From contig NC_057744.1 in NCBI RefSeq assembly GCF_004010195.1, positions 28,830,365 to 28,894,364 on the forward strand: DNA of 64,000 nucleotides, in the 5' to 3' direction. Positions 14,320 to 50,559 of this stretch are shown here, piece by piece. Position 1 is the first letter of the stretch. The number at the start of each line of letters is the position of its first letter. The notes under the pieces were generated by a model, which was not told where the DNA came from, did no database searches, and saw only the letters and a list, made by a program, of their open reading frames with translations. The stretch is from Chiloscyllium plagiosum (Eukaryota). A program made the translations under genes and the position numbers.

Positions 14320-15080
14320 TAGTCATGGAGTTGTACAGCACGGACACAGACCTTTCAGTCCAACTCATCCACGCCAACCAGATATTCAAAACTGATCTAG
14401 TCCCATTTGCCTGCATTTTGTCCATATCTCTCTTAACGCTTCCCATTCATTTACCCATCCAGATGCCTTTTAAATGTTGTAATCGTACCTTCCTCCACAA
14501 CCTCATCTGGCAGCCTGTTCCATACACACACCATGCTCTGCATGAAAACATTGCCTTTCAGGTCCCTTCTAAATCTTTCCCCTCTCACTTTAAACCTATG
14601 CCCTCTAGTTTTAGACTCCCCTACCCTGGGAAAAAGACCTGTTCCTCTCACTTTAAACCTATGCCCTCTAGTTTTAGACTCCCCTACCCTGGGAAAAAGA
14701 CCTCAGTTATTCACCCTATCCATGCCCCTCATGATTTTATAAACCTCTGTAAGGTCATCTCTCAACCTCTGACACTCCAGGGAAAAAGCCCCAGCCTATC
14801 CTACCTCTCCCTATAGCTCAAACCCTGCAAAATTAACAACATCTTTCCAATAGCAGGAAGACCAGAAGAGAACGCAGTATTCTAAAAGTGGCCTCACTAA
14901 TGTCCTGTACAGCTGCAGCATAACATCCCAACACATATACTGAATGCAGTGATTAATAAAGCCAAGCATGTAAATGCCTTCTTCACCACCCTGTCTACCT
15001 GCAACTTCACTGTAAAGGAACTATGCACCTGTACCCTTAGACCTCTTTGCTTGGCAGCCCTCCACAGGACCCCACCATTA
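14320..15080 (-). mobile_element. HER1/CR1 LINE 3' end
   Basis: Minus ORF LFPRVGESKTRGHRFKVRGERFRRDLKGNVF...WNRLPDEVVE and HER1 3' tail. Confidence 0.9.
14581..14703. repeat. Perfect 60-bp tandem duplication with a 3-bp spacer inside CR1
   Basis: 14581-14640 is identical to 14644-14703, separated by GTT. Confidence 0.95.
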
Positions 15081-26019: not shown

Positions 26020-26530
26020 AAAGGCAGCCTGTTTGACTGTCCATTTCACTCCCCCCACCACCAATATACATTGGCTGCAGTGAATACTACCTACAAAATG
26101 CAATACTGTGACCCACCAGGACTTCTTCAAAATCATCTTCCAAACATGCACCCCTTACCAAGTAGAATTACAAATGCAGCAGATGCATGGGAATAGCCAC
26201 ACAGCAGATGCATGGGAACACCCTAACAACAGATGCATGGGAACACATCCACAAGAGATGCATGGGAACATCACCACAGGAGATGCATGGGAATAGACAC
26301 ATAGCAGATGCATGGGAACATCAGCACTTAAAAGTTCCCCTCCAGGTCACACAACCTTCTGGTTTGGAAATACATGATTATTCTTTCACTGTTGCTGAAT
26401 CAAAATCCTGGAACTCCCTCCCTGACCACACTGGTTACATGGATTGCAACAGTTCAACATAATCTTCTCAAGGACAATGTGGGATGGGAAATAAATGCTG
26501 ACCTGATCAGTGATGCTTATATCACATGAA
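26020..26530 (+). mobile_element. CR1/L2-superclade LINE (second family) 3' fragment
   Basis: Reverse-complement match to 18690-19100 (tcaaaatcctggaactccctccc...gggatgggaaataaatgctg). A shorter copy lies at 25380-25500. Confidence 0.75.
26181..26318 (+). repeat. 25-bp-period minisatellite: six invariant AGATGCATGGGAA cores with 12-bp variable spacers
   Basis: Cores start at 26181, 26206, 26231, 26256, 26281 and 26306. Confidence 0.9.
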
Positions 26531-28489: not shown

Positions 28490-29202
28490 CGTCACAATGC
28501 TGGTCTGTTACAAGGTTACTATGCCTTCAAGTTTTCTTTTCAGAGATGGGGTAATTGGCTAGGCTCCATCATGTTTGAAGTTTGAATAGTTCATTGGGGC
28601 CTTTTTGTTGACCCTAACAGATAGTGCTTCAGGCCAAAAGCTTGAAAAGTCTTTTGAAAATTGGAATTGTCAAGGAGCGTAGCCAGCTCTCTATCTGTGC
28701 CATTCAATTCAGTTCAGGGGTTAGCTGAGTAAGAGACATAGTTGAAACTGGAAATTCTTTTTCCTTCTGCCCGTCTCACTTCAAAAACATGTAAGTTGCC
28801 TGTGCTATTGTTTACTGTTTGAGCAAAGGAACGTGTGTATTGGGACTGTTGCAAGTATTTTCAGAACAGCATCATTAAGTCAGGTTTGGATAGGATAAGT
28901 TATCTGGTATTCTGTTTTCTGTTCTTTGTATTTCATTCTGTAATTTTGTAGGGGTATGGGTGGGTTGCGCTTCGGTGGGTCGGTGTGGACTTGTTGGGCC
29001 GAAGGGCCTGTTTCCACACTGTAAGTAATCTAATCTAATCTAATCTAATCTAAATAAATTTTATTTGTTTAAAACGTAGCAGTCAACCCAGCTAATTTAC
29101 ACTGGGGATCTCCACTATACACCTAGCTAAAACAAATAGTAAAGTTACAGTCTGGACTACCTGTTTAAAGGGGTTTTGAGGGGTCTGGCCCTATCCATAA
29201 TA
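28490..29202 (+). repeat. 5' LTR of element 1 (contains an HE1 fragment)
   Basis: Colinear with 34172-34784 apart from 28951-29052. Confidence 0.9.
28951..29052 (+). mobile_element. 5'-truncated HE1 SINE tail inserted in the 5' LTR only
   Basis: ggggtatgggtgggttgcgc...gtaag(taatc)n. The 3' LTR shows the empty site tttgta|aataaa. Confidence 0.88.
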
Positions 29203-29205
29203 GAC

Positions 29206-29224
29206 TGGGGGCTCTTTGCGGGAT
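29206..29224 (+). other. Primer-binding site complementary to tRNA-Pro
   Basis: TGGGGGCTCTTTGCGGGAT versus the canonical PBS-Pro TGGGGGCTCGTCCGGGAT. Confidence 0.75.
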
Positions 29225-29302
29225 TTAACCAGCAAGTGATAGGTGTTTGAGTCTTTTATTTCAGGTGTTGATTTGGTTGGTTTAAACAGTGTTCAGATAG
29301 CA

Positions 29303-32300
29303 ATGGCTCTTTCAGTCACCAAGGAGTTTCTGGAGGTGGAAACAGTGACCTTGGAGGTTTTACAAAAGGCAAATAAGACCAAGCTGTGGGAACTAATAGA
29401 CAAGCTGGTGTTGAATTTACCTCCTAATGTGAGGAAGGACGAGATGATTTCAGCAGTAGCTCAACATTTAAGTTTGCTGGAAATACCATCAGGATCTGTA
29501 GAAATGGCACAAATTCATTGCAAATGAAGCAGCTTGAGTTAGAGGCAAGAGACAAGGAAAGGGCAGCGTAAAAGTTTAAAATTGGAACAGAAAGAAAAAG
29601 AATGAAGGGCTTTACCAGAAGAGAAAGGTAGAGAGAGAGAGTTTGAACTTCAGAAATTGACACTTAAAAAGGGAAGTCACCTTAAAAGGCTGGAGATAAA
29701 GGCTCAGGGTAGTCTAAGTGAGGAAGAGAGTGAGGATGAGCCAACCACTGCTAGTCAAAAGCCTAGTGAGAAACTGTTTAAATATATTCATGCATTGCCT
29801 AAATTAGATGAGAAGGATGTGGAAGCATTTTTCATCGCATTTGAAAAAGTGGCTAAACAAATGCAGTGGGCCAGTGGCAATTTGGGTGTGTTGATCCAAA
29901 CGAAACTTGTAGATAGAGGTAGTGAGGTCTTCGCATCCTTATCAGAGGAGGTATCTGGGGAATATAAGGAGTTGAAGAAAAGCTATCTTAAGTGCATATG
30001 AGCTTGTACCAGAAGCCTATTGACAATGTTTCAGGAATCTAAGGAGGAACCCTTGTCAAACCTATATTGAGTTTGAAAGGATCAAACAAAGTCATTTAGA
30101 TAGGTGGATAAGAGCTTTAAAAATAGTGCAAATCTATGATGTCCTGAGACAATTATTTTGGAGGAGTTCAAAATTTCACTGCCTAGCAAAATGTGAACTC
30201 ATGTGGAAGAGCAGAGAGTTATAACAGCAAGGTTAGCAGGTGATGGGACTGATGATTACAAGCTGGTCCATAAACCATGGTTTGGCTTCCAGAATCAATT
30301 TCAGTCCATGAGGGATAGAAGTTGGGGAAAAGAGAAATCTTCATGTGGAAAAGGTAAGGTAGATCTCAGTGAAGGTCATAAGGAGAACTCACCACAGGGT
30401 AAAAAGGAAACACTTGAAGGGGACAAAGAAAGTGAAAGGCCCCAGTGTTTTCATTGCAATAAATTAGGCCACATGAAATCAGTGTTAGCGGGCTAGGAGA
30501 AGCACAGGAAAGCCAGATGTGGGAAAGCAAGATACACCTGGAAGTTTTGTTGTAATGGTAACAGAAAGCACAGTGGAAGTTAGAAAGCTGCATCAGAATG
30601 TACAAGCTGATCAGAGGTTAGTTCAGGAGGAAGTGCCAGATCTGCTTAAAGAATATATCTACGACATTAAAGTTTATTCACATTGGCCAGGAGTAGTAGG
30701 AAAGCAGGTTACAATATTAAGGAACACAGGATCTTCTCAGTCTGTGCTGCTGAAGGATAAGGAGATACGTATTCCTGAGGGACTATTGCCAGAAAAAGTA
30801 CTGGTAACAGGAATTCATGTTGAGACAAAGAGCACTCACTTATGTAAAGTGAGGTTAGAGTGTCCAGAAAAGAGTGGAGAGTTTGTGGTAGAAGTACAGG
30901 ACAAACTCTCAGCTCCAGAAATACAATTTGTCCTTGCAAATGAAATAGCTGATTCATCGGTAGGCATGCTGCCTACTGTAGTTGAAAAGCCTGTGGAAAC
31001 TTAAGCAACTGATGCAATGCAAGATTCTTATCTGGGAATCTTCTCTGATTGGGTAGTAACAAGCTCACAGAGTTACCAGTCGAAGGAGGAGAGATCAAAG
31101 GATACAGATAATGAAGATGAAGTGGCTTTAGCAGAGACTGTGTTTGATCAGTTAGTTGGGACAAACTAGGAGCAAATAAATAATCATGCAAATATCTTTA
31201 CCTCTGCAAAGCTCATTGAGTTGCAGCAGAAAAGATGAAAATTTAGAGCAGTTGTATCCAATGGCATATACAGAGAAAGAGTATGAATGTATCCCTGTGT
31301 GTTATTACCTGAAAAATGATGTCTAAATGAGGAAATTGAGACCATCACATATTTAAGCAGATGAGAAATGGGCAGAGATTCATCAAATTGTACTGCCAGT
31401 GGGGTATAGAAAGGAGGTGTTGTGAGTAATATGTGACGTACCACTTGCAGCTCATTTAGGAGTGAGGAAAATACAGGCTAAAAAAACAAAGACATTTTTA
31501 CTGGCCTGGACTGCACAAGGATGTTGTTGAATTGCACCAGATGTGTCATACATATCAGGTAAATGGAAATCCACAGGTGGTAATAAAACCTGTACTTTTA
31601 ATATCTATTCCAGCATTTGATGAACCTTTTGCAAGAGTTTTAATTGATTCCGTAGGTCCATAACCCAAATAAAATGTGGGAATCAGTATTTGTTAACAAT
31701 AATACATTTATGGACGTATCGACGAAATTTCTAGATGTCATTCCATTATCCAATATCACAGCTAAAAAGATTGTAAAGGAATTACTCAATTTTTTTACTA
31801 GATATGGACTACCAACAGAGATACAGTCAGATCAAGGGTCAAATTTCACATCCATACTATTCAAGGAAGTTATGGACAGCTTAGGCATAAAGCAATTCAA
31901 ATCTATTGTGTACAATCCAGAATAGCAGTGAGCACTAGAAAGATGGCATCAAACACAAAAGACCATGTTGAAAGCATATAGTCAGGATTATCCAGATGAT
32001 TGGGATAAGGGAATTTTGTTTATGCTTTTTGTCATCAGAGATGCACCAAATAAATTGACCAAATTCAGTCCATTTGAATTAGTTTTTGGGTATGAAGTGA
32101 GAGGACCATTAAAATTGATTAAGGAGGAATTGGTAAGTCAGAATTCAGAGACCAGCCATTTGGCCTATGTGTCAAATTTTAGAGAATGACTAAATAGAAC
32201 TAGGGAGTTGGCCAGACAGCATTTAAAAGTGTCACAGCATACAGTGAAGCAGGAAATGGACAAGAAATCAAAAATTTGCAATTTTGCTATTGGGGATAAG

Positions 32301-33980
32301 GTGCTAGTGTTACTTCCTGTAGTAGGTGAACCTTTAAAAGCAAAGTTTAATGGACCTTATCAAATTGGAAAGAAATTGAGTGAGGTAAACTACTTGATAA
32401 GAACCTCAGACAGGAAAAAATCTCACAGAGTGTGCCATGTGAATAACTCAAAAGGTGTTTTGACGGGAAAGGAAAGCAAGAGGAGACGGTGTTAATGATT
32501 ACAGTACAGAAGGAAGAACCAAGTTCAGAGGATTCTGAATTAGACATTTCTCAAATTAAGTTGGACAATGAGGAAGTTGTCAAAAATTGGGATAAATTAT
32601 TGGGTTACCTTCCTGAGAAAAATCAAAATAACCTGAAAGAGTTATTGCTATCACATGGAAAATATGTGGAAATAAACTGGGAAGTACTAACCTAATCATG
32701 CTTGACGTAGATATAGGAGATACTGTTCCAATTAAGCAACATCCTTATAGGCATAACCCTCTAAAGTTGGCATAGGTTCAACAGGAGATAGAATGCATAC
32801 TCCAAGATGGCATAATCAAAGTGAGTTACAGTGGCTAGAGCTCACCCATAGTAATGATGCCAAAGCCAGATGGTACCCAATGGTTATGTGTGGACTATGG
32901 CAAAGTCAATACAGTTACAAAGACTAATGCATTTCCAATTCTGTGGTTGGAAGATTGAGTTGGAAAGGTGGGACAAGCAACTTGCATTTCTAAGTTGGAC
33001 TTGCTCAGAAGATACTGGCAGGTACCTTTGTCCGAAAGAGCAAAGGCAATTTCAGATTTCGTAACGCGAAATGGACTGCATCAGTTTAAAGTCATGTCAT
33101 TTAGTATGAAAAATGCTCTGGTCACATTTTAGTGACTAATAAGGTAATTGCCAGATTATCCAACTGTGTTGTGTACATTGATGACCTGGTGATTTTTAGT
33201 CGCTCATGGAAGGAATATTTACAATATTTATTGGATTTGTTTGATCGACTTCAGAGGACGGGCCGGGTGGTAAACCAAGCTAAAAGTGAATTTTGTAAAA
33301 GCCCAAGTCACCTTCCTGGACCACGTTATTGGACATGGACTAATGGCCCCATGGGATGCAAAAATGAAAATAATTGCAGAGTTTCCCACACCATCGACAA
33401 AAAGAGCAGTACTATGGTTCTTTGGATTGAATGGATTTTATCAAAAGTTTGTGCTGACGTTTAGCCGTGTAGCAGCTTCACTCATTGAATCGCTAAAGAA
33501 AGGCCAGAAGTTTCAGTGGGCAGCGGACTGTCAGAAGAAATTTGACAGCCTGAGGCCTGTGTTAACTACTGCCCCGGTATTAGCCAATCTGATTACACAA
33601 AGCTTTTCAAGGTGGCTATCAATGCCAGTGATGCGTGTGTTGGTGCTGTGCTCCTCCAGAAAGATGGCGAGAAGATGGAAAGGCCTATTGGGTATTTCTC
33701 CAGGAAATTGAATGTTCATCAGCAGAAATACTCAATGGTTGAGAAAGAGACTTTAAGCTTAGTGTTAGCACTACAACATTTCAATGTTTATGTTACCAGC
33801 AGTGCATCTGAGACAATCGTATACACTGATCATAATCCATTGAAGTTTGTGAAGAAGACTAAGGACAAAACTGCCAGACTGTTTAGATGGAGCTTATCAT
33901 TACAGCCATTCAATTTGAAAACTGTGCATGTGGCAGGACAAAAAAACGTGATTGCTGATGCATTGTTGAGACTTGAGTGA
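29303..33980 (+). pseudogene. gag-pol pseudogene of element 1
   Basis: Capsid LPKLDEKDVEAFFIAFEKVAKQMQW, CFHCNKLGH knuckle, protease LRNTGSSQS, integrase GLPTEIQSDQGSNFTS, RT VYIDDLVIFS, RNase H (NASD..VGAVL, EKETL, YTDHNPL). Many stops and frameshifts. Confidence 0.92.
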
Positions 33981-34171
33981 AAAACAAAGGTGATTGGTGG
34001 TGGGAGAACCACAGACTGAATCCAAATGTAGTTGTGATGTTTGCACATTTATAGTTAGTGAATATATATATGTGTTTAAAGTACTAACTTTTTATTATGT
34101 TTTCTGAGGTTTCAAAAAACGAAGCCCTCTTTGGATGTTGATGGTTCACTGTTTATAAGTGGGGGGGATGT

Positions 34172-34784
34172 TGTCACAATGCTGATCTGTTACAAGGTTA
34201 TTATGCCATTGAGATTTTTTTCAGAGAGGGGATATTAGGCCAGACTCTCTCATGTTTGAAGCTTGAATGGTTCATTGGGGCCTTTTTGTTTACCCTAACA
34301 GATGATGCTTCAGGCCAAAAGCTTGAAAAGTCTTTTGAAAACTGGTATTGTCAAGGGGGCATGGCCAGCTCTCTACTTGTGCCATTCAATTCAGTTCAGG
34401 AGTTAGCTGAGTAAGACACATAGTTGAAACTGGAAACTGTCTTTTTCCATCTGCCCTTCTCACTTCAAAAACTGTAAAGCTGCCTGTGCCATTGTCTACT
34501 GTTTGTGCGAAGGGACGTGTGTATTGGGTCTGTTGCAAGTACATTCGGAACAGCATCATCAAGCCGGGTTTGGATAGGATACGTTATCCAGTATTCTGTT
34601 TTCTGTTCTTTGTGTTTCATTCCATATTTTTGTAAATAAATTTTGTTTCTTTAAAACTTGGCAGTCAAACCAGCTAATTTACTCCAGGAATCTCTACTAT
34701 ACACCTCGCTAAAACAAATAGCAAAGTTATGGTCTGGGCTACCTGCTCAAAGAGGTTTTGAGGGGTCTGGCCTTATCCATCACA
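34172..34784 (+). repeat. 3' LTR of element 1
   Basis: Follows the G-rich PPT; ends CCATCACA before TSD CTAT. Confidence 0.9.
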
Positions 34785-37475: not shown

Positions 37476-37699
37476 TGTCATCTCCCGTTTCCCCACCTTC
37501 TGTTGAGCCATCCCCTTGCTATTCCCTCTGCAGCTTCCCTTCCCTACCTCTTTTGTAGCCTCTTCCATTCCTACCAGTCTTGGAGATTTCTCTTCCCCCT
37601 CCCTCCCCCATATCCCTTTCAGCTTTCTCCTTTCCCCATCTTCTAGCATTCTCCTCACAGTCACCGCTCAGTTTCCTAACTGCCCACTGCTTCTCCAAT

Positions 37700-37908
37700 C
37701 ACAGAAATACTGTGGATGCTGGAAATCTGACACAAACAAAGTGAATGCTGGAGAAACTCAGCAAGTCTAGCAGCATCTATGGAGACAAACACAGAATTAA
37801 TGTTTTGAGTCTGGTATGAGTCCTCATCATAACTTCAGGCTTCTGAAGAAGGGTCACTGGACTGGAAAAGTTAGCCCTGTATCTCTGTCCGTTGATGCTG
37901 CCAAACCT
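37700..37908. mobile_element. Penelope-derived palindromic element (family B), split by Gypsy element 2 and continuing at 43055-43100
   Basis: Inverted arms with CTGAAGAAGGGTCACTGGACTGGAAA on +. The reverse complement of the left arm (37746-37777) predicts the continuation seen at 43055. Confidence 0.75.
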
Positions 37909-38656
37909 ATGTTCCAAGGTTAGTCCCTCTTTTTTCTAAAAGCTGTTCCTTGGCTCAAGGAGACTCTGCCCTTGATTTTTTCAGAGGGGCAATAAAGCAG
38001 GCCAGGCTCCGATCAGTCTGGTTTGGTACAGAAGTGAAAGGATTTTGAGAGGCCTTTTGTTTATATGTAAACAGATGAGATTTCAGGCCAAAGTGTTCAT
38101 CCTTCAGAAGTGACCTGTATAATGAAACGGGAGTGGTCCGCTCTCTAGCTACCTGAGCTGAGCAGTTTAGTTCAGTCTTAAACTGGTGAGAAGTTGAACA
38201 GGGAACTGTGTGGAAACTCTCTCTCTCTCTCTTTCTGCCTTTGACTTCAACCTGTAAAGATGTGTTTCATTTATACTTGTTTTAAAGGGTGTTTGCTTAT
38301 TGGGACTGTTGTGTATATTGGGAACAGCATAATTAGATCTAGTTGGATAGGATGAGTTCTGCAGGGGTTCTCTATTCTGTTCTTTGTGTTTCATTGTGTA
38401 ATTTTATGAATACATTTTTGTCTTTTTTAAAATCTAGTAGTCAAACTAGCAAACTTAATCTGGGTAATTTTCACTGTACACTTACTGAAACAAATTCAAA
38501 GTTATGGTCTGAGATGCCTGCTTAAGAATGTTTGAGTGGTCTGACCTAGTCCATAATAGATTGGGTGCTCTTCCAGGATTTAAACAGCAAGTGGTAGGTG
38601 CTATTGTCTTTATTTCGGGTGTTGGCTTGGTTGGGTAGACAAAGCTTGGGATAGGA

Positions 38657-41600
38657 ATGGCTCTTTCAGTCGCCAAAATGTTTCTGAATGTGGATGCAGT
38701 GACTTTGGAAGTTTTGCAAAAAGTGAATAAGACCAAGTTGCAAGAATTAGCAAAGAAGCTGGAATTGGAACTGCCTGCTTTTGTGAGGAAAGGAGAGATA
38801 ATTATAGCAGTAGCTCAGCATTTAAACTTGCTGGAGAAACCATCAGAATCTATAGAGATGGCAAGAATTCAATTGCAAATGAAGCAGATTGAGTTAGAGG
38901 GAAGAGATAAGGAAAGAGCAGAAGAAATGAACCTCTTTGAGTAATGATTAAAAGCAGAAGGGAAAAAGAGAGAGCAGAGAAATAAAAAGAGAGAGCTTTT
39001 GAAACTTCAAAAACTGACGCTTAAAAAGGAAAATCAGCTTAAAAGGTTGGAGAGAAAGGCTGAGGGTAGGCTCAGTGAGGAAGTAGTGCGAACTCATGTG
39101 AAAGAGCAAAAAGTTAAAATGGCAAAGTTAGCAGCTGAAGTGGCTGATGATTGTGAGCTGGTCCATAAAACACAGTTGACTTCCAGAATCAATTTCAGTC
39201 CATGAGGGCTAGAAACTGGGGCAAAGAGAAATCCTCACGTGGAAAGGGAAAGGTAGGTCTCAGTGAAGATCATAAGGATAACTTACGACAGGGTCAAAAA
39301 GAAACCCTTGAGGGGGACCAAGAAGTTAAAAAGCTCTGGTGTTTTTGTTGTAATGAAGTGGGCCACACAAAATCACAGTAGTGTAGGGGAAAGCCAGACG
39401 TTGGAAAACCAGACAAGCCTGGGAGTTTTATTGGACTCGTAACAAAAAGCACAAGGGAAGTTAGACAACTGCCTCAGAGTGTACAAGATGATCAGAGTTT
39501 GATTAAGGAGGAAGTGCCAGATCTGCTTAGAAAATATACATGCAAGGATAAAGTTCATTCACATAGGCCAGGAGTAGCAGGTAAAGAAATCACAATATTA
39601 AGGGACACAGGATCTTCTCAGTCTGCAATGCTGAACGATGAGGAGATATGCACTCCTGAGGGACTACTGCCAGAAAAGGTACTGGTAACAGGAACTCATG
39701 GTGAGACAAAAAGTGCTCAATCATGTAAAGTGAGGTTAGAGAGTCCAGAGAAGAGTGGGGAAATTGTGGTGGGAGTACTGGACAAACTCTCAGTTCCAGG
39801 AGTACAATTTGTCCTTGCAAATGATATAGCTGATTCACAGGTAGGCGTGCTGCCTACTCTAGTTGAAAAGCCAGTGGAAACACAGGCAACTGAGGACATG
39901 GAGAATGTTTATCCAGGAATTTTCCCTGATTGTGTGATCACAAGGTCACCGAGGCACAAACTGAAGCAGGTGAAATCTAAAGACACTGATAAGGAAGCTG
40001 ACATAGTGTTATCTGAAACGTACTTAATCAGATAAGTGGAACAGAGAAGGTGCAAATAGGTAAACATACCAGTATCTTTTGGTCTGCTAAACTGATTGAA
40101 TTACAGCAGAAAGTTGAGGTTAAAACAGCTATATTAAAAGGCATATACTGAGAAGGAGAGTGAATGCCTTCCTGTGTGTTATTACTTTACAAATGATGTC
40201 GTAATGAGGAAATGGAGACAATTACACATTCAAGCAGATGAGAAATGGGCAGAGATTCATCAAATTGTTTTGCCAGTAGAGTATAGAAAGGAGGTGCTGC
40301 AAGTGAGCTACCACTTGAAGGTTATTTAGGGATGAGGAAAACACAGGCTAAAATACAAAGGCGTATTTACTGGCCTGGACCACACAAAGATGTAGCTGAA
40401 TTTTGCCAAATGTCAGCGAATTGGAAAATCACAGATAGTAATAAAACCTGCATCTTCAATACCTATTCCAACATTTGAGGAACCTTTCACAAGAGTCTTG
40501 ATTGATTGCATAGGTCCCCTACCTCAAACAAAAGTGGGGATAAGCATTTATTAGCAATAATGGATGTGCCGACTAGATTTCTGGAGGCAATCCCATTACG
40601 CAACATCACAGCTAAAAGATTGTAGAAGAACTACTTAATTCTTTTACTAGATACGGACTACCAATAGAAATCCAATCAGATCAAGGATCAAACTTCACAT
40701 CCAAACTATTCAAGGAGGATATGGATATCTTGGGAATAAAGCAATTCAAATCTACTGTCTCCATCGGGAGTCACAAGGAGTGCTAGCGTGATGGCATCAA
40801 ACACTGACGAGGGCCTATGGTCAGAATTATGCAGATGATTGGAATAAGGGAGTTCCGTCTGTACTTTTTGCGATCTGAGATGTACCGAATGAATCTACCA
40901 AATTCAGTGCATTTTAATTAATTTTTGGGCATAAAGTAAGAGGATTGTTAAAATTGATTAAGGACCAATTAATAAGTCAAAATACAGAGACCACCCATTT
41001 GGACTATGTGTCAAATTCTAGAGAACAATTAAATAGAGCTGGAGAGTTGGCTAGGTAGCATTTAAAAGTATCATATCATACAATGAAACAAGAGGTGGAT
41101 AAGGAATCACAAATTCACAATTTTGCAATTGGGGATAAGGTATTGGTGTTACTTGCAGTAACAAATGAGTCTTTAAAAACAAGGTTTAGTGAACCGTATC
41201 AAATTGAGAAGAAATTGAGTCAGGTGAACTACTTGATAAAGACTCCAGATAGGAAGGAATCTCACAGAGTATGTCATGTGAATATGCTCAAAAGGTATTT
41301 TGATAGGGAAGGAAAGCAAGAGAAGGTGTTAATGATTACAGCACAGAAGGAAGAACCAGGGTCAGAGGATTCTGAATTGAACAGAAAAGACCTGAAAGAG
41401 TTATTACTATCACATGGGGAGATATGTGGAAATAAACTGGGAAGTACTAACCGAATTGTGCATGATGTGGATATAGGAGATGCTGTTCCAATTAAGGAAC
41501 ATCCTCATAGGCATAACCCTTTAAAGTTGGCACAGGTTCAGAAGGAAATAGAGCACATGCTCCAAGATGGCATAATTGAAGTGAGTTACAGTGACTGGAG

Positions 41601-42880
41601 CTGTCCCATGAGACTGATGCATATCCAATTCCGCGGTTGGAGGACTGTGCCAAAAATGTGGGACAAGCAACTTACATTTCCAAGTTGGACTTGCTCAGAG
41701 GCTACTGGCAAGTACCTCTGTCAGAGAAAGCAAAGGCAATTAAATAGAGCTGGAGAGTTGGCTAGGCAGCATTTAAAAGTATCACATCATACAATGAAAC
41801 AAGAGGTGGATAAGGAATCACAAATTAGCAATTTTGCAATTGGGGATAAGGTATTGGTGTTACCTGCAGTAACAAATGAGCCTTTAAAAACAAGGTTTAA
41901 TGGACCGTATCAAATTGAGAAGAAATTGAGTGAGGTGAACTACTTGATAAAGACTTGATAAAGCTTTCATACCGCCAAATGGCCTATATCAGTTCAAAGT
42001 CATGCCATTTGGTAAGAAAAACGCTCTAGCCACATTTCAGAGACTGACTAGTAAAGTCATTGCCGGACTACCCAACTGTGTGGCATAGATTGATGACCTG
42101 GTGATTTTTAATCACTCATGGAAGGAACATTTACAGCATTGATCGGACTTCAGAAGGGAGGCTTAGTGGTAAACCTGGCTAAAAGTGAATATGCCAAAGC
42201 CCAAGTCACCTTCTTGGGCCATGTTATTGGACATGGACAAATGGCCCCATAAGATGCAAAAATGAAAGTAAATGGGGAATTTCCCACACCATCAACAAAA
42301 AAAGCAGTACTACGATTCCTGGGGTTGAGTGGATTTTAACGAAAGTTTGTGTGCCAAATTTTAGCAGTGTGGCTACCCCACTCGTCGAATTATTTAAAAA
42401 GGGCGAGAAGTTTCAGTGGACAGCAGAATGTCAAAAGGCATTTGACAGCCTACAAACTGTGTTAACCACTGCCCCAGTATTAGCCACACAGGATTACACA
42501 AAGACTTTCAAGGTGGCTATTGATTCCAGTGATATGAGTATTGCTGCAGTGCTACTGCAGGTGGATGACGAGGGATAGAAAGACACATCGGGTATTTTTC
42601 CAGGAAGTTGAATGTTCATCAACAGAAATATTCAACGGTGGAGAAAGAGGCTTTAAGCTTGGTGTTGGCATAACAACATTTCAGTATTTATATTACCAGC
42701 AATGCATCTGAGACAATCGTATACACTGATCACAACCCATTGACATTTGTGGAAAAATTTAAGGACAAAAATGCCAGACTGTTTAAATGGAGCTTGTTGT
42801 TGCAGCCATTCACTTTAACAATTGTGCATGTGACAGGTCACGAAAACATGATTGACGATGCGTTATCGAGACTCAAGTGA
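38657..42880 (+). pseudogene. gag-pol pseudogene of element 2 (capsid deletion near 39080; internal duplication)
   Basis: MALSVAKMFL gag start, LRDTGSSQS protease, IQSDQGSNFTS integrase, IDDLVIF RT, DSSDMSIAAVL and YTDHNPL RNase H. Homologous to element 1. Confidence 0.9.
41737..41955 (+). repeat. 219-bp copy of 41026-41244 inserted into the RT region
   Basis: Near-identical sequence; the junction shares CAATT with the RT sequence gcaaaggcaatt. Confidence 0.9.
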
Positions 42881-43422
42881 AATACAGAAGCATTTGGTGA
42901 TGGGTGTACTGCGACCTAGGGTTGTGCATGTTTGCACGTTTATAGCTAGTATAGTGTAAATGTGTGTTTAGACTACTAATTGGGTTTTTGAAGGGTTAAA
43001 AATGAAGTCATCTTTTGGTATTGATGGTTCATTTTTCTTAAGGGGGGAGGTGTCACCTGTTCAGTTTCTCCAGGACTTTGTGTGTTTGCCTCCGATCACA
43101 GGCTGTTTCTCTCTATGTTTGCTCATGCAGGGCAGTGAACCAGCCTGTGATTTGTCAAGTTCCTCACTGATTCTATCACGCTTTACTCACCAGGTGAAGG
43201 GACTTTTTTCTAATTGGTTGCTCCCACAATTTAATACTTTTTGGATATTTTAGGGGCTTTAGGGTGAATTCACTCATTGTGCTTAGGTATTTTGAGCCCC
43301 GGAGAGAGCTGGTAAGGGCATGGATATTCTTGGTCCTTTCTGTAGTAGTTGTTTACAAAATGCTAAGTACATTTCAAGCTCTTTGAGAGTTCTGATGATG
43401 CTCTTTGAGAAACTTCAAGAAT

Positions 43423-43701
43423 TAGTGAGTTTTGAGAAGATTTGTAGCTCAGGTTGAGGTTCTGCATGTAAGTTTGCTCACTGAGCTGGAAGGTTCATTT
43501 CCAGATGTTTCATCACCCGACTAGGTAACATCTTTAGTGGGCCTCCAGTCGAAGCACTGTTGATAATTCCTGCTTTCTATTTATATCTATCAACAGAAAT
43601 TATCAACAGTGTTCTGCCTGGAGGCCACTGAAGATGTTACCTAGTAGGATGACGAAACATCTGGAAATGAACCTTCCAGTTCAGCAAGAAACCGACATCC
43701 A
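43423..43701. mobile_element. Penelope-derived palindromic insertion (family C) with hammerhead motifs on both strands
   Basis: TSD AAACTTCAAGAAT (43410-43422, 43702-43714). + motif at 43628-43661; degenerate minus motif at 43504-43537. Confidence 0.82.
43628..43661 (+). ncRNA. Minimal hammerhead ribozyme motif (family C)
   Basis: CCA-CUGAAGA-U-GUUACC-UAGUA-GGAUGAC-GAAAC-AUC-UGG, with helix I CCA/UGG. Confidence 0.6.
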
Positions 43702-46632: not shown

Positions 46633-46883
46633 GTGTTTTAACTGTTGAACTGTAATCACATCCACCACTTCCTCTGCAAGTTCATTTTACACACAACCCA
46701 CTCTCTGTGTAAAAATAAAATGCCACCATGTCTTTTATTAAATCTTTCTCCTCTCACCTTCAAAATATGTCACCGAGTCTTGAAATCCCCCTCTTGGGCT
46801 TTGTTATTAACTGAAATTGTCACTAAGCCACAGAAGGAGATATCAAAACAGATAACCAAATGGTTGGCCAAAATAGATGGGTT
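46633..46883 (+). repeat. ~250-bp near-identical direct repeat, copy 1
   Basis: Matches 49412-49660, including a CR1/L2 junction. Confidence 0.92.
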
Positions 46884-47639
46884 TTATAGAGTGTCTTAAA
46901 GGAAGAAAGTAAGTATGAGGAACTGATATTTTTCTTTGTTGAATTATAAACTGAAATAGATGTTGGGCATTGCTATTTAACTTGAAATAACAGGAGATGG
47001 ATTAAAAAGTGGTGCACATTTTTGACTGCGCAAGACAATATTAATTTTTGAAGCAGTGATTTGGATACTTTGAGATAGAATGGCACCCGGCATCCTTGAT
47101 TTAAAGAAAAGCTGCTTGGCAACAGTCCTCAGATTGGTCCATCTATAGTTTGTTTCAGATCTTCATGTGTAGAGCAGCTAGAATGTCCAGAGTCAGCAAA
47201 CAGAAATCAAATCTATCTCCCTTCAGTTGCTTTGAGTGAAAAGACACTCAATGAAAGAAACTTAAAAGAAACATTCTAGTAAAAATAAAGACCCAGGTCT
47301 ATTGGATCCACTATTGAAGAACAATCATGGATTTACAGATAACAGCTTGTCTAAATCATAAGAAACTCTGAAAGACAATTTAATCCATCCCTGTGGCCTG
47401 TTCTTCTTACCTTCAGAATTTTGATTTCTCTGTCTATAGTTTTGCACCATAGCATTTGTATCAAACCATCTGTCTTTAGACTATTTTAATTATGGATAAA
47501 TTTATATGTAATTGCCATTTTAAAGGGGCATTTTAAAATTGCTTCATAATACAGTTATTAACACTTTTCTCTGCCATTTGATAAAGTTAAATATGCCTAC
47601 AAGATCCGTTTTCTGCTAGTGATGAAACCTGGTATGAAT

Positions 47640-49271: not shown

Positions 49272-49574
49272 TGTAGAGTCATACAGCACAGAAATAGACC
49301 CTTCAGTTGAACCAGTGCATGACAACCATAATCCCAAACTAAAATAATCCCACCTGCCTGTGCTAGGCCCATCACCCTCCAAACATTTCTTAGTCATGTA
49401 CTTATTTAAATGTGTTTTAACTGTTGAACTGTAATCACATCCATCACTTCCTCTGCAAGTTCATTTTACACACAACCCACTCTCTGTAAAAATAAAATGC
49501 CACCATGTCTTTTATTAAATCTTTCTCCTCTCACCTTCAAAATATGTCACCGAGTCTTGAAATCCCCCTCTTGG
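49272..49574 (-). mobile_element. CR1 3' end inserted into an L2-type tail
   Basis: agagtcatacagcacagaaatagaccc tail; flanked by GCTTTGT at 49265-49271 and 49575-49581. Confidence 0.8.
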
Positions 49575-49660
49575 GCTTTGTTATTAACTGAAATTGTCAC
49601 TAAGCCACAGAAGGAGATATCAAAACAGATAACCAAATGGTTGGCCAAAACAGATGGGTT
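49412..49660 (+). repeat. ~250-bp near-identical direct repeat, copy 2
   Basis: Matches 46633-46883. Confidence 0.92.
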
Positions 49661-50559
49661 CTATCAAAAGCCTTAAAATGGTCAGTATTGAAATTTACAA
49701 CAGACCTAGCATCAATATTTTGGAGGTAACTCAGATTTCTACAACTCTTCACTTTGTGAAGACATATTTCCTGAGAACCAGCTCCAAAGGAGCCTTGTTC
49801 TGGAACTCCAAATCATCTGGGGAATTAGTTCATCTTTATGAGCTCAATCAAATCAATTAAGCATCTTAAATAAATTAATTAGATTAATGTTTAATCTGGT
49901 TTGCTTTTGGGAATACTAGTCTTGTCTATGCAGCCTGACTTCATAATTAATCCTTTCAGCTCCAGTTATACCCTGGTAAGTCTGTGCTACACCCTTTCCT
50001 AAGCTAACATATCCTTCTTGAGACACACTGGCCAGAATTGAACACAGCACTCCAGATGGGATTGCACAAAGGCATTTTACAACTATGCTGTGTGAGTCCT
50101 ACATATTTCTTTTTGATTTCATTCAAACAGAAGCTGCAATATACAGCAATCAATCCTTACACACTCTTCAAACAACATATAACAGAAAGATGAGGAATGC
50201 AGAGTGGGGACTCTCAAACTCCAGACGATACCTAACTAGGTTAGTGCAAGCCAAGATAATGTTGAAAGAGTGAGGTCAACAGTTTGGTTTGGCAAACTCT
50301 AGCACTGAGTGTTCTCGCCAAAGAGCACATTAAGTCATCAGAGCAGATTCCTTAAACGTGATTCTATTCCAACTTTCTCCCCTTGCCTTCAGATGGTTGC
50401 TGTGGTATGGATTCATGAGTCCCAGCAGCCTCTGGAATCTGTATTGTTGGCTAGTCCTCAAGTGTCGGCCTCCAAAATGAATGCTAGGCTATTCAACAGT
50501 GGCTGTGGTTAAGTACAATCGATCCTTGCCCAGACCCCATAATGTATAGGTTCCAAAAT

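Follow-up and report, generated by a model that had tools for sequence, protein, structure and literature searches.

An end-permuted Gypsy-type copy with a single long terminal repeat in Chiloscyllium plagiosum, possibly inserted from a one-repeat circle

In a stretch of 64,000 nucleotides (nt) of the Chiloscyllium plagiosum genome (contig NC_057744.1, positions 28,830,365 to 28,894,364; hereafter the window), a dead, decayed Gypsy-type copy, element 2 (37905-43058), carries a single long terminal repeat (LTR) at its left end, an internal region and, at its right end, only a few letters that match the start of a sister element's LTR. The LTR tip is missing from the left end but is found at the right end, as a circular substrate with a single LTR copy would predict, and insertion of such a one-LTR circular form, by integrase or by a repair route, is considered probable. 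That integrase itself inserted the circle, nicked or closed, through two cryptic CA ends in the tip of the U3 region is the reading preferred here, with a confidence that falls a little short of even. An earlier, sequence-only reading, which proposed that a one-LTR circle opened 4 nt inside U3 was inserted by aberrant integrase activity or break repair, is partly supported. The features on which the argument draws, including a sister copy (element 1), a primer binding site (PBS), a polypurine tract (PPT) and the target site duplications (TSDs), are as follows.

28490..34784, plus strand: element 1, a normal two-LTR sister (LTRs 28490-29202 and 34172-34784; TSD CTAC/CTAT)
37705..37908, no strand assigned: left portion of the dispersed palindromic repeat that was the target (inverted on itself over 37765-37906 with 63% identity; similar to further copies in the window)
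37905..37909, plus strand: left target duplication, ACCT at 37905-37908 (perfect) or CCTA at 37906-37909 (TG...CA parse)
37909..38558, plus strand: single LTR with native tip absent; starts (A)TGTTCCAAGG, ends CCATAATA
38562..38579, plus strand: PBS-like motif with a TGG start, 3 nt past the LTR; element 1 has a similar sequence at the corresponding place
38657..42880, plus strand: decayed gag-pol (Pfam, forward frames), 81% identical to element 1
41737..41955, plus strand: templated insertion of 219 bp inside the reverse transcriptase (RT) region, a copy of 41026-41244 (210/219 identical)
43040..43050, plus strand: PPT
43051..43055, plus strand: what remains of the LTR tip on the right, TGTC(A); extended to 43056, a 6/6 match to the LTR start of element 1, TGTCAC
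43055..43059, plus strand: right target duplication, ACCT at 43055-43058 or CCTG at 43056-43059
43055..43096, no strand assigned: right-hand remainder of the interrupted repeat arm, continuing the left portion in register

Architecture of element 2 and its right junction

The 650-bp LTR of element 2 matched, in a blastn search against the whole window, only itself, the two LTRs of element 1 and short chance sequences; no second copy or 3' LTR remnant of element 2 was found in the window with this query. The earlier description of one LTR of about 650 bp, a PBS, gag-pol and a PPT followed by only TGTC is confirmed. Element 2 has one LTR and an internal region that runs from PBS to PPT, and lacks the two LTRs of a canonical integrase-made insertion; such a product, having no 3' LTR, would be unable to transpose again. 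The PBS-like motif is presumably of the tRNA-Pro type.

Reads and contigs from four of 24 runs were compared with the window, and what is said of them here and below concerns the best-supported matches listed. A contig of organism B (X5, rec14) aligns over its whole 423 nt to 43022-43446 with 11 differences and two gaps, and reaches 33 nt into the element; a contig of organism C (X7, rec22) spans 43020-43441 with 12 differences and reaches 35 nt into it, its first 22 letters being unaligned. Both extend more than 31 nt to either side of the right junction, so that it is bridged in two of the three contig runs, by organisms from separate studies; the contig of organism A (X1, rec7) reaches only 11 nt into the element and was not counted as a bridge. 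Because it is bridged in organisms B and C, the right junction is taken to be real and to predate the separation of lineages that lie about 3% apart at this locus. These contigs bear directly on the possibility of an assembly artefact in which a 3' LTR was collapsed or dropped. Such an error could be promoted by the high copy number of the family (in run X19, of which 4% was used, depth over the element mostly amounts to several hundred), and no listed piece offers an independent view of the left junction or spans the whole element. The PPT-TGTC-host junction in two other organisms, together with flanks that are contiguous with a 4-nt duplication, nevertheless makes an artefact highly improbable. 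The earlier proviso about a collapsed 3' LTR is answered in this way at the right junction, the left one being absent from the pieces listed.

The coding region was compared with Pfam in the three forward frames of each element, with X substituted at stops. Integrase_H2C2, Integrase_p58_C and SH3_Tf2-1 lie upstream of RVT_1 and RT_RNaseH in both elements. In element 2 the gag ATG is at 38657 and a protease motif near 39600 was identified by eye, while Pfam places the integrase H2C2 domain at about 40320-40410, the integrase C-terminus and SH3 at about 41160-41300, RT at about 41980-42200 and RNase H at about 42420-42810. Stops and frameshifts are abundant in this region, gag is about 460 bp shorter than in element 1 near 39084-39090, and the deletions relative to element 1 measure 397+65, 70 and 70 bp. 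The 219-bp insertion was copied from the integrase end of the same element; CAATT is shared at its left border, and its right border shows a short tandem duplication. Family reads bypass it in all four runs (joint from 41741 to 41963, 41974 or 41975), which indicates that it is peculiar to element 2 or to a few copies, and old; either an RT template switch or polymerase-theta-like repair may be its origin.

An integrase upstream of RT and RNase H defines the Gmr1-like group of Ty3/Gypsy elements, according to the parts of PMC8220671 that concern it, and this order was overlooked in the sequence-only reading. Element 2 is like the Gmr1-like clade, named for Gmr1 of Gadus morhua (PMC8220671), in its Gypsy-type RT and RNase H, integrase-before-RT order, LTR, PBS-like motif and PPT, and differs from it in having one LTR and a permuted tip. 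No Pfam match to SCAN was found in the six decayed frames, with about 460 bp of gag missing from element 2; in the frog Gmr elements covered by the relevant part of PMC4131045, SCAN is present in the gag of over half and is not obligatory.

Target site and sister element

The left junction reads ...GCCAAACCT ATGTTCCAAGG, with ACCT at 37905-37908, and at the right junction the PPT is followed by TGTC (43051-43054) and then by ACCTGTTCAG, in which ACCT occupies 43055-43058. Continuity of the flanks was scored against 12 copies of the repeat arm, each anchored on a motif. For the right flank, the best fit leaves exactly four bases between 37904 and 43059 (122/216 matches; the next best offset gives 94), and the mirror arm at 37777 on the minus strand agrees on this spacing (22/30); therefore four host bases were duplicated and none lost. 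The duplication thus has the length seen in element 1 (4 nt), without host loss, as judged from the repeat copies, and the probability that a perfect 4-mer would arise by chance at fixed junctions is about 0.0045. The earlier claim that both flanks belong to one split arm with ACCT duplicated and nothing lost is upheld by the 12-copy scan and the mirror arm, and insertion of a one-LTR, end-permuted DNA in a single event is supported by the flanks in register and by the right junction in other organisms. The name Penelope given to the arm did not find such support: a search of Rfam over 37600-38700 returned only two chance matches, so that the class of the arm is unconfirmed and no named RNA family is supported. 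Within the target repeat, the segment 37841-37875 combines CTGAAGA with a short stem and GAAA, presumably resembling a minimal hammerhead core, which Rfam did not detect at this position. A single crossover through the TGTTC common to the right flank and the left end was considered and rejected, since it would need 2-nt insertions at both junctions; another arm copy that already has TCAG (44473) also counters it.

Element 1 provides the comparator for the ends. Its two LTRs are identical at 536/609 positions, and the 4-bp TSD noted earlier was found again, with one mismatch (CTAC/CTAT). The internal regions of the two elements are 81% identical, and the LTR of element 2 is 72% identical to those of element 1 over its 3' part (38211-38554). 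The left end of element 2 matches at 12/13 positions a motif of element 1, TGTT.CAAGGTTA, that sits 11 bases past TGTCA; a match of this quality was reached in 5/3000 shuffles, and only four sites with at most two mismatches occur in the window. In element 1 this inner motif agrees with the LTR terminus at 8/10 positions and could, to judge by this likeness, act as a cryptic end. The order of the ends of element 2 fits element 1 (TGTCA, then the left-end motif), though 11 nt lie between. Because of these 11 bases, the join TGTC/ATGTTCC may conceal a loss of about 11 nt, and if the family of element 2 is built like element 1, the seamless join would be an illusion. By an alternative, longer local alignment, the LTR start of element 1 falls about 24 nt inside the LTR of element 2. 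For a circle opened exactly 4 nt into U3, as the earlier reading had it, the evidence is therefore split, the 11-nt spacer counting against it and the 24-nt register allowing it.

The same comparison bears on whether element 2 was an ordinary two-LTR insertion that later lost, by deletion, nearly the whole 3' LTR and also the 5' tip (unless the LTR natively starts TGTTCC). Element 2 is an old copy that shows further deletions when compared with element 1, an AC microhomology could have closed a deletion of the 3' LTR, and by element 1 the left end would be without some 15-16 nt against 4-6 nt kept on the right, so that the two ends may not be complementary. Such a history, however, would require both deletion ends to fall within about 2 nt of the borders between element and host with all host bases spared, and the identical short right end is found in two other organisms with no intermediate state seen; it is accordingly regarded as rather unlikely.

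Several further observations concern the LTRs themselves. The LTR head of element 1 (34172-34197 and 28490-28515) holds an 8/10 duplicate of its own terminal motif at a period of 16 nt, a possible second attachment-like site. The 5' LTR of element 1 contains, just upstream of an AATAAA motif, a 102-bp insert (28952-29053) that ends in (TAATC)5.6, resembles the tail of a short or long interspersed element and is absent from the 3' LTR. Both 5' LTRs (29195-29202 and 38551-38558) end in ATAATA, not CA, ahead of the PBS-like motif, unlike the 3' LTR of element 1, which ends in CA. A tandem duplication within the LTR head of element 2 was tried and found not significant (306/2000 shuffles).

Wider searches for relatives gave no usable copies. 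An 18-nt LTR-head motif was found at 10 loci in metagenome contigs, none matching the window beyond about 29 nt, as expected by chance; a 14-nt motif was found at 120 loci in viral contigs, consistent with chance given the size of the collection; and protein-based locus searches confirmed 0/6 candidates among viral contigs and 0/29 among prokaryotic genomes.

Routes of insertion and known circular intermediates

All parses of the junctions that keep the host in register were enumerated, and three are relevant. The first has a perfect ACCT duplication and ends ATG.../...TGTC. The second has a 4-nt duplication CCTA/CCTG, differing by one transition, and ends TG.../...TGTCA. The third has a perfect 3-nt duplication, CCT, with one shared A and a CA right end. 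The second parse combines canonical dinucleotides with a TSD of the same length as that of element 1, which likewise has one mismatch; at the mismatched column the 12 repeat copies read G in eight, A in three and C in one. The sequence-only reading, which left the route between integrase and break repair, overlooked this TG...CA parse, which favours integrase, acting through cryptic CA ends in the tip of U3, over break repair. The first parse needs no mutation, but under it a process other than integrase must yield a clean duplication of family length one base away from TG...CA. By rough judgement, not by computation, integrase is about twice as likely as repair.

The third parse is the one expected of a linear, stalled cDNA. 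Here the plus strand would have stopped at TGTCA just past the PPT, integrase would have joined this CA end, and the other end would have been trimmed and joined by integrase or host enzymes, with a 3-nt CCT duplication, one shared A and no circle. Proviruses with one integrase-made and one host-made end are well documented for avian sarcoma/leukosis virus (ASLV) and HIV-1 (human immunodeficiency virus type 1) in the portion of PMC5041404 dealing with them. In such a cDNA, however, a normal left tip would exist and be preferred by integrase, the loss of the tip on the left and its presence on the right are better explained by a single-copy circle, and host-made ends usually carry host rearrangements (PMC5041404, in the same portion), none of which are seen here. 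This course of events appears improbable, more so than a later deletion.

A stronger competitor is break repair, in which an opened one-LTR circle or nicked intermediate was captured where the palindromic repeat had suffered a staggered break, ACCT being the filled-in overhang and the A or AC at the right junction a microhomology with the LTR tip. It accounts for the ACCT/ACCT parse without any mutation and for the 1-2 nt that the right-end TGTCAC has in common with the host; the palindromic nature of the target also fits, repair-like activity in element 2 is revealed by the templated insertion of 219 bp with its CAATT edge, and insertion of circular intermediates with microhomology is described for human segmental duplications (PMC7450558). 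Repair must nevertheless treat the clean 4-nt duplication of family length, the absence of host loss and ends one base from TG...CA as coincidences, and integrase-independent HIV-1 insertions, as summarized in part of PMC11042837, are mostly LTR-truncated and without TSDs. Break repair is thus judged unlikely, though less so than a deletion or a linear cDNA.

Under the preferred reading, insertion of a one-LTR circle by integrase, the following course may be proposed. Plus-strand transfer would give a circle with one LTR copy and a plus-strand nick at the border of PPT and U3. Just inside U3, the CA of TGTCA on the plus strand would face a CA on the minus strand (the complement of TG in TGTTCC), an arrangement resembling the two ends at the junction of an LTR-LTR circle. 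Integrase would expose both CA-3' ends and the intervening bases would be discarded (0 nt if the family LTR starts as the earlier reading supposes, about 11 nt if it is built like that of element 1). Concerted strand transfer with a 4-nt stagger would leave CCT(G/A) on both sides, followed by a later transition in one copy, and the insertion would have been fixed in the germ line before the divergence of the three organisms, about 3% different at the locus, and then decayed. Two facing CA ends at the U3 tip are proposed as a single model for joins with or without a short spacer, and closed and nicked circles leave the same product. The specific proposition that the integrase of a vertebrate Gypsy element mistook the tip between PPT and U3 in a one-LTR circle for a circle junction, cleaved this pseudo junction at two facing CA ends and integrated the circle in the germ line is put forward tentatively, as somewhat less likely than not to be correct in full.

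Such a substrate is a known product of reverse transcription. After plus-strand transfer a nicked one-LTR circle is formed, which is then sealed or displaced into two-LTR linear DNA (bioRxiv 10.1101/2022.09.25.509424; PMC3148978; PMC7197481, in the sections on this step), and in Drosophila germ cells the nicked circle is described as an obligatory and abundant intermediate (bioRxiv 10.1101/2022.09.25.509424; PMC12951756). One-LTR circles predominate in fly germ cells and seldom yield insertions, according to PMC12951756. The circles of HMS-Beagle and nomad (bioRxiv 10.1101/2022.09.25.509424; PMC12951756) and of HIV-1 (PMC3148978) have, like element 2, one LTR and a full internal region; in those accounts they either remain extrachromosomal after sealing or become two-LTR linear DNA before integration, whereas the one-LTR form of element 2 is chromosomal. 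The integrases of HIV-1 and foamy virus can open the junction of a 2-LTR circle, and the CA-3' ends so produced are then integrated, as set out in PMC4372172. There, as proposed for element 2, facing CA ends are opened and the product integrates; the HIV-1 and foamy virus substrate, however, has two LTRs and a true U5-U3 junction, while the site proposed for element 2 is cryptic and lies at the PPT-U3 tip.

Aberrant ASLV and HIV-1 proviruses (PMC5041404) and integrase-independent insertion of Tf1 (PMC11042837) have LTR ends truncated at insertion, like element 2. As these sources describe them, such cases usually have a normal end on one side, rearranged host DNA, or homology to the primer with no TSD, whereas both ends of element 2 are abnormal and complementary in kind, the host is intact and 4 nt are duplicated. 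Permuted insertions through circular DNA are described among human segmental duplications (PMC7450558), where reversed end order marks the circle as proposed for element 2, and in cattle colour-sidedness (cited in PMC10462705); these are host segments joined by microhomology, while element 2 would be a retrotransposon opened at the LTR tip. The DIRS-like and KnitGypsy-Dnmt3 split-repeat elements (PMC5890265) also have an arrangement of ends that suggests insertion of a circle, but these layouts are, in the account given there, family-wide (with a tyrosine recombinase in DIRS), whereas element 2 is a one-off with a normal sister. A DIRS affiliation was not found: both elements have DDE-type integrase domains and no recombinase match in Pfam, and the LTRs of element 1 are normal. 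Circles of transposable elements are called generally a dead end in the portion of PMC10462705 concerned, which leaves re-insertion open and has two LTRs in all truncated insertions. Aberrant ends, circle-derived permuted host DNA (PMC7450558), integrase-independent insertion (PMC11042837) and Gypsy split repeats (PMC5890265) are already known; a natural tip-permuted one-LTR retrotransposon insertion was not found reported in the literature searched, in which older retrovirology was thinly covered.

A number of points weigh against integrase-made insertion of a circle. The perfect duplication, ACCT/ACCT, goes with non-canonical ends; TG...CA termini appear only in the parse with one TSD mismatch, and this parse requires a substitution at exactly the informative base. 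The putative native LTR start of the family was judged from element 1, the one relative read. The target lies inside a palindromic repeat and the element holds a templated insertion bordered by microhomology, both compatible with break repair. In HIV-1, as part of PMC4372172 reports, the levels of 1-LTR circles were unchanged as new integrations appeared, with no apparent role for them. The left junction is not among the 24 pieces listed (250,530 further pieces exist), and no joint from 43054 to 37909 is among the 15 of 3330 joints listed, which is uninformative at a depth of 10-14 reads near 42912-42921. Neither the empty site nor a PPT-to-LTR joint of the family is among the best-supported rows listed (15 of 3330 joints, 24 of 17,375 loose ends), which is no evidence of absence. 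The case, finally, is a single dead fossil (n=1).

Other features of the window and implications

Elsewhere in the window, a dispersed-repeat fragment of 268 bp is directly duplicated at 46633-46900 and 49412-49677, its copies being 96% identical and separated by 2.8 kb; this was rejected as an LTR pair since the only PPT-like and PBS-like motifs of the window belong to elements 1 and 2. A perfect two-copy tandem duplication of 63 bp lies at 14581-14703 and, because its copies are perfect, is recent; a 25-bp minisatellite of about six copies occupies 26177-26327.

Element 2 is one inactive copy with no evident host effect, and what it conveys is suggestive only. One-LTR circles are the main replication product of LTR retrotransposons in fly germ cells and are viewed as a genome-protecting sink in the pertinent parts of bioRxiv 10.1101/2022.09.25.509424 and PMC12951756. 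If the reading proposed here is true, these circles would be occasional substrates of heritable insertion, now misfiled as truncated elements, and would leave a searchable signature consisting of a single LTR, TG...CA ends at the U3 tip and a TSD of family length. With a fixed germ-line copy of this layout in hand, the signature could be counted across assemblies, which would make both the rate of such leakage and the choice between integrase and repair testable computationally.

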